NCBI GenBank assembly: GCA_964016885.1 | Contig: OZ024741.1 | Span: forward strand, 275,962,001 to 276,026,000 | Direction: 5' to 3' | DNA length: 64,000 bases | Origin: Eledone cirrhosa | Lineage: Eukaryota | Shown here: piece by piece, positions 6,622 to 55,172 of the stretch | Layout: each line of letters opens with the position of its first letter | Position numbering within the stretch: the stretch's first letter is position 1 | Made by a program: the position numbers and the translations under genes | Notes under the pieces: generated by a model | What the model saw: only the letters and a program-made list of their open reading frames with translations | Database searches by the model: none | Told to the model about the DNA's origin: nothing

Positions 6622-6806
6622 TAGGAAAAGAGTCAGAACCCCAACAGCAGAGCTCAAGCTGTTTCGACAGCTATTTCTGTCGGAAATAGCTTAAGCTCTG
6701 CCGTTGGGGTTCTGACTCTTCTCCTATTACCCACTCTACTACCCAAAGTATCGAGTACTCTGGTGCATTATGGTCCACCTGGTTCCTTACCAGACTTCCT
6801 TCATTA
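6622..6806. mobile_element. Mini fold-back pLTR insert with tail, relative of the PLE at 52355-54800
   Basis: Inverted arms ~6622-6660 / ~6688-6726; tail ttacccactctactaccc...ggtccacctggttccttacca is shared with 54721-54800; flanked by (TA)n. Confidence 0.85.
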
Positions 6807-6838
6807 TATATACATATATAAATATATATAAGTATATG

Positions 6839-7188
6839 TAGGCACATGGCTTAGTGGTTAGAGCATTGGCCTTGCAATCGAAAGGTTGTGAGTTCAATTC
6901 TCAGATCGGGTGATGTGTTGTTTCCTTTAGCAAGACACTTTATTTCACATTGCTCCAGTTTACTCAGCTGTAGAAATGAGATGATAGGGACTGGGGTCCA
7001 AATCATTCCACTGCAAAGTGGTCGTGGAGGTGCCACGGCAAAAAAAGCACCCAGCACTCACTGTAAATGAGGTTGGTGTTAGGAAGGGCATCCAGCTGTA
7101 GAAATTAAGCCAGAATCAGTTCCCGTCCCACCCTTGCAAGCAGTGAAAAGTGGACGTAAAATGAAATGATGATGATGAAATGATGATA
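6839..7188 (+). mobile_element. Full-length tRNA-derived SINE with CORE-like segment and RTE-derived 3' tail
   Basis: A box tggcttagtgg, B box gttcaattc; tail ccgtcccacccttgcaagc...gtaaaatga shared with the RTEs at 28510 and 60930. Other copies at 27820-28155, 48687-48905 and 50572-50690. Confidence 0.85.
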
Positions 7189-7189
7189 A

Positions 7190-50812: not shown

Positions 50813-52354
50813 GGGTATCAAAAAATAAATATGGTATTTATAGGTCTCTACAAGTGGTAGGAGAGGGTGGGGAGTGGGATGGGTGCAGGTCATTGGTTGA
50901 TAGAAAAGGGAATTCATTAAAAGCTAATTCTACAAAGCTATAGTTAATTTTTATTTTTATTTATATTTTATATTTATTTATGTTTTTAGAGTAACAAAGG
51001 CAGACAGAATTCTATAAACAGGTTCCGGATGGCATACCATTCCTTGTCAATAATTTTCCCACTTGAGGCAAGATTGGTTGTCTTGCTCGTATAGGACTGT
51101 CTGGCGGGTTTTCTACGGCTGGATGCCCTTCCTAACACCAACCACCTTTACAGTGTGGACTGGGAGGTTTTTACAGTGTTACCTTCACGGCCAAATTACA
51201 GTGTGGACTGTGTTTTTTTTTGTTGTGACACCTACACGACCTCATTTATTTCGGACTGGATGTTGTGGTACCAACATAACTTTACATCGAAAGGGGTGGT
51301 GTGGATGGGGTGGGGGTAGTGGGACGGGTGTGTATTTATTTATTTTTTAAGAGGTGCCTACTGACTGTAGGTTTCGCTTTGTACTTAGGCAAGGCGGGTC
51401 TTCTGTATTACTGTGTAGCGCCAAAGATCTCGGTCCAGTGACATTGTCTTGGAGAGGTGTGTGTGAGGTCAGAATTCATCAAGTCGTCCCAGGTTTTTCT
51501 GGGTCTACCTACTCCGTGGCTACCGTCTATTTTTATTGCCTACACTTTTTTATACAGCTGTCGTCTTTCGTGCGCATCACGTGACCATATCAACGTAGTC
51601 TTCTCTCGAGTAAACAACATCTGATTCCTCTTATTATATATATATATATATATACATATATATATATATATATATATATATATATATATATATATATATA
51701 TATATATATATATGGAAAATGGACGATGATGATGATGATGATATGTCTGTCTATATATATATATATATATATATATATATATTAATTCTATTGACCGATT
51801 AATCGCTTAAGTTTATTTTAAAAACAACTCGGTCGAGAGGTTAATTTGGTTTTGTGCTATTTTTGCAAATTTTTGCAATAACTACACATGTTGAATTCAC
51901 TGGCCAAAATAGGGGTTTTCTCCCCTTAGAACCTCACATGTGCTTTTCATAACCTGTGAGATTCTGGTGCATGAAGAACAAAATGCCTGTTGAGAAAGCG
52001 ATGCCTTGTTCAATCATTATACCAAAAGCTTATTTTTTATAAGCAAACAGTATTATTGATTTAGGTATTGCAGAAACCCTACATCGGAGTATTTCATCTT
52101 CCCCGAGGGTCCGGGTAACTATTTCAATCATATCTTATTTTGTTTGACCCGTTTAGCTTGTTCGCTTTTTTGGCTCAGGTGGTTAATGGCATCTTAACCA
52201 TCGTCTCAGTTTGTATGACCTTTTTTAACTTATGTTTATAGCTCTGGTATCTTCTTACCCATGGAGCGCTTGTCTGCACAATATAGAAGTTGCGTTTCGC
52301 TAATTTCTACCTGCCGAAATGCGATTCTTGCTAAATTTATATTTATATATATAT

Positions 52355-54800
52355 AGGAACGAGTAGGACCCCGACGGCTGAACTCAAGCCGTTTCGACGG
52401 CTAATTCTAGACTAAATAAAAATTTAGATTTTTTATATTTGAATAGCCGAGCTTCTCAGGGGGTAATTCCATATATGGTAAAAGTGATTGTCACAAGGAT
52501 TGGTCAAAAGTTTGTTGTTGAGACATAATAATTCTATCATGGCAATTTGTGGAGGGAAGGGGTAGCTGAACCTGCAAGTAGAAGAAAGAGGGAGAGATGG
52601 TGGAGGAAACCCAGTCGTGGTGCGTTGATAGTGCCAACTACAGCTGGGCATGAGGTCAAAGAAGATATTAAGGGGGGGGGGGGGAGTCGAAACAATAAGT
52701 AAAACAATATGGGGTAAATATATAGAGAAATACCGGGAGTGTTAAAAAACAATTAAATGTAAAAAAAAAAAAAAAAAAAAATTTCTGGTTACTATAACCT
52801 AAGGACAGCTATCAAGTCTCTCACTGGTACTGCTAGACTAAAGAAAGGTTTACTAGGTGGGACGGAATTATAATGAGACCCTTTTAAGAGGTATAAGTAA
52901 ACAACCGAATATATCTTACGGTGACGGGTCAACAAGTGGGGGGCCAAAATACTAAAGAAACTACCACAAAATAATAATTCAGAGTACCGAGACCAGTACG
53001 AAATAAGGGTTTCTACCCCAGGCACAAGGCCAGCAACCACCCAGTGCAAAAAAAAAAAAAAACTAATACGAAATAATAATTCAGAATCCCGAAAAAGAAA
53101 ACTAATACTATCTCTAAGGGTGCCGCCACGATACAAAAATTCTAGTGCAAACTACATAAATGCTCATACGAAGTATATGTAAAATTTGATACGGAAAATT
53201 AATTCAGAATCACCCCCCCCCCCCTCCGAGCATAAATTGCACGGACGGCGTCCTCCCGTGTAAGAGTTGGCTCTGGATAGTAAGCTCCAAGTGAGATCAT
53301 AGGTAATATTGTTATCAATGAGGTCCCATATGTGGCCCGAAAGTGTAGTGGCGTGACGCCGGGCCGGGTTTCGGAAGGTATGTCTGTGTTGGTATAGCCG
53401 GGTCTTGAAGTCACATGCAGTTAATCCTATATAAGCTTTGTTGGAGGTGTCCGTCCTCACGTTGCACTGGTAGATCACATTACGATCTCTGCATCTGTTG
53501 TCGAGGGGGAAAATGGATCCATCAGGACAGTTGCACCTCCTGGTCGGCTCTCCACTGCTATTTACGTTATTTCTTCCATAGGGGTTGAGTTTTTTGTTGT
53601 TAGAGGAGACAATGTTTTGTGCAAAGTTTGGTGTGGTGCTGTAGGAGAGTTTGATGGTATTTTTGTTAATTATGTTGTGGTAGCGGTGTTGTAGTGGGAA
53701 GTGTATTTCAATGAGCCTAAAGAAGATTTTGCCGATAGGAGTTGTCACCTCGGCGTTGTGGGGAGGATTAAACCATGTTACGTTGCGTGAGCGGCGGTGT
53801 CGCCTGCTGGTTCCGCTAATCGAAGCTGGACAGTAGGATATTTCCTCCCGGAAACCACTCCGCTTGAGGGCCTGGTTGTAATAAGGCGCATGTTCCTCGA
53901 ATATCTGCTCATTAGCTGACAAACGAGATATGCGGACGGAGATGTTTTTAACCAGGTTATTGGTGATGTTCCTAGGATGGTTTGACCGGCGGTGGATGTA
54001 GTGCAGGTTGTCGTTAGGTTTCCTGTATGGGTAGTACAGATCATTATCGAGGTCAAGGGTAACGTCCAGGAAGTTTACTCGGGTCAGGTACGTTTGTAGG
54101 GTTATTTTAAATCCCCAGTCGCGGAAGAAGCTGATTAATTGTTTACGGACCCGATCTGTACTACTGGGGTTGTACCCTTTAAGGGTAAGGAGCCCATCAT
54201 CACGGTACAATCCACCGCCGAATGCAGGAAACATATCGGTGAGTTTGGCTATTAGGAATAATCCGATAAGATCTGTGACCTCAGCCGAATCCGTCGCGCC
54301 CATGCTGACGTCGAAGGGTGAGTCGGGAGCTCTCTTTATCCATTTGGAGTCGTCAAAGAGTAAGACTGTCTTCCTGGCGTGGAGGATGATGTTTCTTTCC
54401 TGGTCGGTGATGGGCACAAGTGTTTCGGCGAAGTCCAAGGCAGCCGTAAGTAGCGGTAAAGTAATTGAAGCATAGTAACTCTCTATGTCAAACTGGATGA
54501 ATTTAGTGTCTCGTTTTTCCTCCATATTGCTGAACCATGAGATTACTTCCTGGGTGTTGACCCATAGGCTAAGTCTGGCGTGTTGCTTACTTTTACCATA
54601 TATGGAATTACCCCCTGAGAAGCTCGGCTATTCAAATATAAAAAATATAAATTTTTATTTAGTCCAGAATTAGCCGTCGAAACGGCTTGAGCTCAGCCGT
54701 CGGGGTCCTACTCGTTCCTATTACCCACTCTACTACCCTAAGTATTGAGTACTTTGGTGCGTTATGGTCCACCTGGTTCCTTACCATATTTCCTTCGTTA
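52355..54800 (-). mobile_element. Penelope-like element (YRDD type), 5'-truncated with inverted pLTR and tail
   Basis: 52355-52485 is the reverse complement of ~54588-54721; tail 54722-54800; (TA)n flanks. Confidence 0.93.
53164..54525 (-). CDS. Penelope-type RT plus GIY-YIG (partial)
   Basis: FDIESYY, FDVSMG, LYRDDGL, NFLDVTL, SNHP, WFNPP, NVIY...AYIGLT..FKTR..QH, CNLC. Confidence 0.9.
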   Translation of the reverse strand: MEEKRDTKFIQFDIESYYASITLPLLTAALDFAETLVPITDQERNIILHARKTVLLFDDSKWIKRAPDSPFDVSMGATDSAEVTDLIGLFLIAKLTDMFPAFGGGLYRDDGLLTLKGYNPSSTDRVRKQLISFFRDWGFKITLQTYLTRVNFLDVTLDLDNDLYYPYRKPNDNLHYIHRRSNHPRNITNNLVKNISVRISRLSANEQIFEEHAPYYNQALKRSGFREEISYCPASISGTSRRHRRSRNVTWFNPPHNAEVTTPIGKIFFRLIEIHFPLQHRYHNIINKNTIKLSYSTTPNFAQNIVSSNNKKLNPYGRNNVNSSGEPTRRCNCPDGSIFPLDNRCRDRNVIYQCNVRTDTSNKAYIGLTACDFKTRLYQHRHTFRNPARRHATTLSGHIWDLIDNNITYDLTWSLLSRANSYTGGRRPCNLCSEGGGGDSELIFRIKFYIYFV

Positions 54801-54830
54801 TATATATATATATATATATATATATATATA

Positions 54831-55172
54831 TAATAACTTGAAATTGATTAACATATATATAAACATGAATAATCACAGGACATAATTTTTACAAGCGTAT
54901 AATCATATTAAAAGGTATCTATTTTTGAAGTTCTAGTCAACTTAATTTTGTTACCTTCCTAGCTATGCGTGGTTACACGCTTGTAAAAATTATCTCCTGT
55001 GATTATTCATGTTTATATATATGTTAATCAATTTCTAGTTATTATAAATTGCTCGGACCTACTCTATAGAATCTTTGAGCTTATTTTCCGGGCGATATGG
55101 CGCACGCCGTTATGGCATGACACCCATAATTTCAATTTAGATTAAATTCATTTAATTTACCTTAAGTTTGGA
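54831..55172. mobile_element. Non-coding fold-back insert with tail
   Basis: ~54831-54905 is the reverse complement of ~54970-55045; tail to 55172; (TA)n flanks. Confidence 0.8.

Follow-up and report, generated by a model that had tools for sequence, protein, structure and literature searches.

One-tailed inverted inserts in the window

The window studied here, a 64,000-nt stretch of the genome of Eledone cirrhosa (contig OZ024741.1, positions 275,962,001 to 276,026,000), carries a series of inserts that derive mostly from Penelope-like elements (PLEs). Self-comparison and arm-by-arm alignment of 13 candidates revealed that all 11 inserts named in an initial annotation of this sequence (6622, 7190, 11049, 17161, 20531, 34822, 36307, 36762, 36955, 52355 and 54831) have the form ascribed to them, namely two inverted arms whose element-sense 3' ends point outward, with a tail on a single arm. 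That list was incomplete, the same form being present at 2416-3418 (insert K, without a second copy among the loci collected), and the insert listed as partial at 49380 stays so, the evidence there being an inverted repeat inside a GIY-YIG fragment. The 13 inserts occupy 12,151 of the 64,000 bases (Table 1). The tail-less, or short, arm adjoins a (TA)n run in 10 of the 11 named inserts, in agreement with the location first described; the exception, 7190, lies at an (ATC)n run. Tails measure 33, 38, 44, 63, 68, 80, 80, 89, 129 and ~160 nt, so the range of ~35-240 nt proposed at first holds up to its upper part, where the 240 nt at 36955 turned out to combine an 85-nt tail with 157 nt read through from the tandem unit that follows. 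As argued below, we consider it highly probable that such inserts are head-to-head double insertions of PLEs made by dual priming at a (TA)n target.

The PLE origin suggested by the annotation was supported for seven of the nine families, which could be tied to a PLE reading frame; the other two (G and H) are tandem units of ~500 and ~555 nt, respectively, in which no reading frame was found. Among the three inserts said to retain PLE coding sequence, 17161 matches Pfam RVT_1 and GIY-YIG and 49380 matches GIY-YIG, while 52355 has no Pfam match, yet shares 53-58% identity with the PLE reverse transcriptase (RT) frame of family A. An RT followed by a C-terminal GIY-YIG in one frame was found for family D (by Pfam) and for A, B and F, and the GIY-YIG end alone was recovered for C, E and J. 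GIY-YIG frames also lie upstream in B, C and E (7 of 25 loci in E). Family I is tied to PLEs more weakly and indirectly, through locus L320 and a common upstream region. The families called non-coding are thus pieces of PLE pseudo-long terminal repeats (pLTRs), apart from G and H, and the placement of each family at the 3' end of an autonomous PLE fails for these two (36955 and 54831).

Family A carries DKT, RWRA and CxCX5C, and family F carries DKT and CxCX5C; neither shows CCHH, the CxxC-YxG pattern giving no match in either. The window piece of family B is without the DKT region and has a degenerate linker, and it was placed by its identity to A. A and F by motifs, and B and I by similarity, would accordingly be members of the Hydra clade as defined in Craig 2021. 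Families C, E and J have a CX2-5CxxC linker and CCHH in the endonuclease; by these motifs, and with the RT not recovered, they appear Neptune-like and may belong to Neptune, Nematis or Naiad. Family D combines DKG with CCHH. An Rfam scan of the window returned no hammerhead, its sub-threshold miRNA matches falling on repeats alone. The hammerheads claimed for these inserts stand as type I motifs found by descriptor, with cleavage only predicted, at 36808 (+), 50806 (-) and in both arms of 36307, and in 21/30 loci of A, 16/30 of F and 3/30 of B (variant core; most B copies are cut inside the motif); the descriptor found none in families C, D, E, G and H. Hammerhead-like motifs were also seen outside the named inserts, at 35064-35109 (-) and 31050 (+).

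The insert families are not due to chance, because exact arm words (26- to 41-mers from five families) occur 10,171 (A), 14,616 (B), 7,315 (F), 1,436 (C) and 2,125 (D) times in the 3.0-Gb assembly and reversed controls 0 times. For family I, the exact pattern matched the window alone, and a DNA search then gave relatives. Inserts of different families are stacked back to back in one (TA)n run at 36250-37480, 20513-20532 and 54798-54833, and likewise at most fetched loci.

Table 1. Inserts, arms and tail signal located in the window; clade names and hammerhead motifs are predictions.
Feature	Position	Strand	Description
Insert K	2416-3418		Arms 2464-2675 and 3207-3418 (212 nt, 99% identity); 531-nt AT-rich spacer; ~49-nt tail, left
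Family B tiny hairpin	6624-6804		Short arm 6624-6670; tailed arm 6677-6724; 80-nt tail
Family I hairpin	7180-7760		Arms 7180-7343 and 7443-7600; ~160-nt tail; (ATC)n run
Family C insert (Neptune-like)	11046-12089		Arms 436 nt; 33-nt tail, right
Family D PLE (DKG, CCHH)	17163-20513	+	Short inverted arm 17163-17972; RT and GIY-YIG body on tailed arm; 44-nt tail contains reading-frame start
Family E insert (Neptune-like)	20532-21242	-	38-nt tail at left; short arm at right
Solo short-ended family C arm	21619-21804	+	Between (TA)n runs; starts near inner stop site (188 nt)
Family A tiny hairpin, older copy	34826-35010		63-nt tail
Family F perfect palindrome (Hydra clade)	36307-36730		Hammerhead motif in each arm; 89-nt tail, left
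Family A tiny hairpin (Hydra clade)	36763-36935		Short arm 45 nt; tailed arm 64 nt; 68-nt tail; hammerhead motif from 36808
Bulged stem, start of family A tail	36874-36892	+	RYTC, upper stem, 2-nt bulge, GARY
Family G insert	36958-37477		Short arm 66 nt; tail 85 nt, then 157 nt of read-through; tandem unit of ~500 nt, non-coding
Family J partial insert	49379-50574		Neptune-like GIY-YIG fragment; 52-nt inverted repeat 50185-50236 / 50523-50574
Solo short-ended family A arm	50747-51058	-	TATA-like box and initiator-like site kept upstream of hammerhead
Family B PLE (Hydra-type RT)	52356-54798	-	2.1-kb RT/GIY body on short arm; right: inverted 130-nt tailed arm, 80-nt tail
Family H hairpin	54833-55171		129-nt tail; non-coding ~555-nt tandem unit

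Coupling of the two ends

Across 30 loci per family, nearly every arm ends in one of two ways, which agrees with the claim that outer ends are fixed within a family: the arm passes straight into (TA)n at a TA-like word, as had been noticed for the short end, or it continues through a tail of fixed length. Tailed and short ends were counted 21/9 times in A, 15/15 in B, 14/16 in F, 10/20 in C and 12/18 in D; in family A, another short end lies 6-8 nt before the first one. Some copies read through past the tail, in 3/30 loci of A and 2/30 of F (in both families into a PLE start codon) and 1/30 of D; tandem or partial tandem copies of this kind were found at L007, L013, L021, L171, L175, L234, L285 and L299, whereas the 30 loci each of B and C gave none. 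As the sequence of tandem copies goes on beyond the tailed end, both RT start sites must be internal. The tailed end had been taken for the RNA's 3' terminus; this was not supported, since the tandem copies run past the tail into the reading frame of the next unit.

The two ends are paired almost strictly. Among 84 two-arm inserts from five families whose arms are not separated by (TA)n, the pairing was short+tailed in 75, short+short in two, tailed+tailed in one and unclear in six, and the 75 of 78 classifiable cases compare with an expectation of 0.5 (p=5e-19). The long two-arm inserts that were fetched, whose loci partly overlap those of this set, were short+tailed in 16/16 cases. Such near-strict pairing argues that the two ends are coupled and not randomly chosen. 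Moreover, the difference between arms within and between inserts was 0.030/0.089 in A, 0.037/0.077 in B, 0.030/0.085 in F, 0.049/0.081 in C and 0.045/0.049 in D; arms thus share subfamily variants, which points to one RNA or one source locus and does not by itself separate the models. The arm joints, described from alignments, contain short overlaps or short, often templated, inserts, and they are consistent with host end-joining; counts from a base-level junction classifier were left unused, being confounded by differences between copy and reference.

These results support the earlier proposal that both strands of the target prime cDNA synthesis, and we regard the following mechanism as likely when taken as a whole. 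The GIY-YIG endonuclease would nick both target strands, and each nicked (TA)n strand would then prime, giving the tailed arm at a fixed internal downstream site and the tail-less arm at the TA-like word 33-160 nt upstream, both cDNAs being presumably copied from the same RNA or the same source locus. When priming occurs on the 5' pLTR part of the transcript, both cDNAs would run off its 5' end after 50-190 nt and yield tiny, non-mobile hairpins, like the strong-stop DNA of retroviruses, while priming on the downstream pLTR would produce long or full-length arms. The 3' ends of the two cDNAs might then be connected by host end-joining, with short overlaps or templated inserts left at the joint. 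In the Hydra clade, the stretch between the start sites holds a conserved bulged stem, which may well serve to position the RT. Some points weigh against this mechanism. The 30 loci per family were the first 30 matches on contig C1 and not a random draw, and in Frangieh 2024 (PMC11167929) the two strands did not differ in start site in vitro, which does not by itself predict strict pairing.

Other features of these families were noticed along the way. Long copies of family A (L299:553-4400, L298 and L300) have a ~2.8-kb TA/TG/CA microsatellite-like 3' region, by which the element may spread its own target. In family D, the arms L283:3625-4826 and L288:3714-4605 contain the pLTR and the frame start and then jump to the last ~80 or ~50 codons; from this layout they appear to be internally deleted or template-jumped copies. 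Public-run contigs matching window 36804-36871 contain recurrent A joints, in which the short end and a few T's are followed by a T-rich stretch upstream of the family's own hammerhead. These may reflect insertion into, or a jump onto, its own pLTR, and thereby a possible route to tandems.

Inner stops and competing explanations

Inner breakpoints do vary, as the annotation predicted, but far from randomly, and they cluster at one site per family. Measured from the short end, 47/67 arms of A stop at 57-68 nt, 62/89 of B at 51-62 nt, 14/34 of F at 162-163 nt and 10/39 of C at 185-195 nt. The stop rate per nt in the peak and before it is 0.098/0.008 in A, 0.120/0.009 in B, 0.378/0.003 in F and 0.045/0.003 in C, that is, 12- to >100-fold the preceding rate. 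Unpaired arms stop in the same places, and 12 of the 13 family F joints listed from public-run contigs have one end at 36559-36566. The pattern of an A joint, with both arms ending near the hammerhead start, gave 5,617 strand matches, in which many loci are counted twice. The start of L299, a long family A copy that has a reading frame, lies near the inner stop, 72 nt upstream of the short end. All four peaks coincide with Y-C-A, located 66 nt (A), 53/58 nt (B), 192 nt (C) and 162 nt (F) from the short end on its upstream side, and a TATA-like box lies ~30 nt upstream in A and C; the background for the two motifs together is 0.0014 per position. From these positions, the tiny hairpins are probably run-off products at the 5' end of the pLTR transcript. 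A TATA box seen in the window copy of B was rejected, as it failed in other copies. Run-off is weakened by several points: the peak windows were picked after inspection of the data, the TATA-like box is not conserved in B and absent in F, D has no clear peak, the B stop falls inside hammerhead stem II, and the transcription start is inferred from motifs only.

The main alternative to run-off, notably for B, retains dual priming and takes the inner stop for a stall of the RT at an RNA structure, or for a processed 5' end, instead of a transcription start. Besides the B stop in stem II, the stop in A coincides with the 5' base of hammerhead stem I and that in F lies at a 6-nt palindrome; B and F are without a TATA box, and the stops of A, B and C also follow AG. 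We nevertheless find a stall rather unlikely, given Y-C-A at all four stops and a TATA-like box near -30 at two of them, the lack of a hammerhead motif in family C by descriptor, the long coding A copy that starts at the same place, and a ribozyme cut site that lies downstream of the stop and not at it.

It has also been suggested that both cDNAs start from the tailed site and that the endonuclease later trims one of them at the internal TA word ('EN-mediated resolution', Craig 2021). Trimming accounts for either arm being the longer one and for the short end lying at a TA word, and AT-rich DNA is the preferred substrate of the nuclease (PMC11167929). Nevertheless, it would have to hit exactly one arm nearly always to leave a single tailed+tailed and two short+short inserts among 78, and both tail ends are RT start sites in vitro (PMC11167929), so that we hold trimming to be improbable.

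In a fold-back, or self-priming, model akin to the one proposed on an antisense template in Arkhipova 2013 (PMC3846280), the cDNA from the tailed end snaps back, copies itself as far as the TA word and is joined to the target. The sharing of subfamily variants between arms and the common palindromic junctions agree with it, as do the equal arms in 33 of 68 directly joined pairs. Fold-back requires a tailed arm at least as long as the short one; among these pairs, however, the tailed arm was longer in 17 and the short arm in 18. Likewise, of the 16 long inserts, nine had the body on the short arm (in some of these including most of the reading frame), six had it on the tailed arm and one had equal arms; the window holds both kinds, with the body on the short arm at 52355 and on the tailed arm at 17161. 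Furthermore, 11 inserts join one arm to an inverted tail-only piece, and such a partner never held the sequence of the other arm. Uneven deletion within palindromes could make some short arms seem longer, which counts against our interpretation. On balance fold-back seems quite improbable, and compared with the self-priming of Arkhipova 2013 our counts favour two independent primings.

A de novo scan of the window, 400 kb of adjoining sequence and six blocks of 100 kb (1.064 Mb in all) detected 224 uninterrupted inverted pairs, which comprised 76 asymmetric cases at (TA)n (with a few likely false positives, e.g. the satellite at 33424), eight symmetric cases (some of them mis-trimmed tailed inserts), 12 unresolved and 128 without an arm at (TA)n; the 76 asymmetric cases fell into 40 clusters. 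Scaled from this sample, the genome would hold very roughly 10^5 inserts. That the small hairpins are true miniature inverted-repeat transposable elements, or MITEs, i.e. DNA transposons with TA target duplication, or assembly artefacts, as their short TA-flanked inverted repeats and the eight symmetric cases might suggest, is hardly credible and largely refuted for families A-F by the 76 asymmetric cases, by inner junctions that vary between copies, by arms that are pLTR pieces of coding PLEs, and by independent contigs that carry such joints. Indeed, insert 7190 is crossed from its left arm through the spacer into its right arm, with 0 differences, by a 233-nt contig of a public run, which may derive from the assembled individual. 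The public-run contigs gave no empty site for this insert. A target-site duplication, where present, would be concealed within the (TA)n run. Three symmetric TA-flanked inverted repeats belong to no family (C2up 190741-191022, C1a 77040-77216 and C2d 11231-12826) and could be short+short PLE inserts or true MITEs. Many of the short TA-flanked inverted repeats in such genomes would thus be by-products of retrotransposons, and their annotation as DNA transposons is unwarranted.

A conserved stem in the tail and known elements

A bulged stem lies 4-11 nt 3' of the short end. It runs from RYTC into 3 bp or more of upper stem with a variable loop, then into two bulged nt (in most cases TT or TA) and lastly GARY. 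This fold opens the tails of families A, B, F and H and, with one mismatch, those of G and I. The stem was present in 14/40 tail clusters (shuffle mean 0.53, max 5) and in 3/20 held-out clusters (shuffle 0.21, max 2). The basal pair that the definition leaves free was GC in nine cases, AT in seven, AC in two and other in three (Fisher p=0.002 on the 2x2 part), and the basal pairs left free were Watson-Crick in 16/21 and 18/21. Six of eight pairs change on both sides in 18 selected examples, a descriptive figure, as the examples were chosen by pairing. By eye, the stem is perfect in three of six published Hydra consensus sequences, Hydra-2_Amil (coral), Hydra-1_Ajap and Hydra-2_Ajap (sea cucumber) (PMC8557442 File S7). 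Four of nine Hydra-type tail-only pieces stop just 3' of the stem, which is only suggestive of its role.

From its place and conservation, the stem could be a signal that positions the RT, an idea for and against which we see the balance as even. Against it, no stem was found in families C, D and E, which pair in the same way; the definition was made post hoc, and the scans of 14/40 clusters and of 18 examples required pairing; the clusters are not independent lineages; and in the published consensus sequences of that file, by eye, the stem is near-only in Hydra-1_Crog (copepod) and was not seen in Hydra-1_Amil and Hydra-1_Obim. The presence of the stem in G (with one mismatch) and H suggests that these non-coding units ride on Hydra-type enzymes. 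A bolder and more tentative view, which we hold possible but somewhat doubtful, is that PLE integration might be an obligately asymmetric two-primer reaction on one RNA, in which a stem conserved among Cnidaria, Echinodermata and the genome studied here registers the RT and which leaves ~10^5 dead strong-stop hairpins per genome. The bulged stem would then be likened to the template-boundary element of telomerase, the sister enzyme of the PLE RT, and start sites just behind the cap would cause hairpins to be shed that annotation tools take for MITEs.

The element class, i.e. known PLE clades, and the architecture of inverted arms, tail and (TA)n are already published, and two internal RT starts are known in vitro. 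Craig 2021 (PMC8557442) reported that Hydra-clade elements target (TA)n, come with an inverted copy truncated at its 5' end and may bear the tail at either end, and called the mechanism open. Our Hydra-type families share with those elements DKT, RW[K/R], the CxCX5C linker and the C-terminal GIY-YIG and, as putative motifs, type I hammerheads, while the tails differ (63-160 nt here vs 30-40 there); strict pairing, clustered inner stops and the bulged stem are not described in the available text of that paper. In Frangieh 2024 (PMC11167929), both strands are nicked and extended by a PLE protein, Poseidon_Ac, which starts at two internal sites corresponding to the ends of the tail. The two RT start sites that bracket the tail and the AT-rich target are common to both systems, whereas Poseidon_Ac belongs to another clade, its start sites lie within the reading frame and not upstream of it as in families A and F, and the available text offers no model for the inverted arrangement or for the coupling of one tailed and one short end. 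The same inverted pLTR structures were reported in Arkhipova 2013 (PMC3846280), and a promoter within the pLTR in Schostak 2008 (PMC2377424); the Adineta and Drosophila Penelope elements of these papers resemble ours in the head-to-head inverted pLTR with a tail on one, the pLTR promoter and the partial tandems. Cervera 2014 noted paired minimal hammerheads on opposite strands, 100-700 bp apart. Li 2026 (bioRxiv 10.64898/2026.07.22.740005) linked tandem retrozymes to pLTRs as non-autonomous PLEs; these non-LTR retrozymes are short tandem non-coding pLTR-related units, as are G and H, which differ in having no hammerhead by descriptor, and the part of that work available treats tandem units and not inverted hairpins. 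An annotation of Octopus vulgaris lists PLEs, MITEs and unclassified terminal inverted repeats, and the words 'hairpin' and 'palindrom' are absent from its available text.

Strict pairing, run-off hairpins and the bulged stem were not the subject of any paper that our literature search returned. Relative to the literature searched, what is new is the strict coupling of the ends, the case against fold-back, the internal position of the tailed end in these elements, the clustering of inner ends with the run-off origin proposed for the small hairpins, and the conserved stem. Twin priming of L1 is similar in that the second target strand primes internally by microhomology and that a head-to-head joint with microhomology results; it differs in that L1 arms are non-overlapping on the RNA and start at the poly(A), whereas here the arms overlap and the starts are fixed and internal. 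Both Craig 2021 and Frangieh 2024 name as an open problem how PLEs, the closest relatives of telomerase RT, form their inverted repeats and one-sided tails. As each family has thousands of copies in the genome, the models become countable against each other, and the counts favour coupled dual priming. Our results also provide the existing in vitro system with precise start sites, a probable site of transcription initiation and an RNA element that may act as a signal.

The window contains other repeats as well. Two tandem 742-nt 3' fragments at 37980-39941 are non-LTR-like without a Pfam match, and by motif they look like parts of a restriction-like endonuclease non-LTR element. An open frame of 1,031 aa at 55704-58799 (-), with apurinic/apyrimidinic (AP) endonuclease, RT and PHD finger, is an apparently intact non-LTR element, of which an older copy lies at 45895-48246 and many 3' fragments are found across the window. 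A repeat with a tRNA-like head occurs at 6840-7162, 27835-28155, 48688-48903 and 50570-50689 (Rfam tRNA 28.1 bits, just below threshold); its 3' end matches the end of the non-LTR element, and it is probably a short interspersed nuclear element. Finally, tandem arrays occupy 12385-13900, 33233-34030, 59078-59901 and 62794-63625; they consist of a low-complexity repeat, a partly palindromic satellite, and units of ~204 nt and 52 nt.

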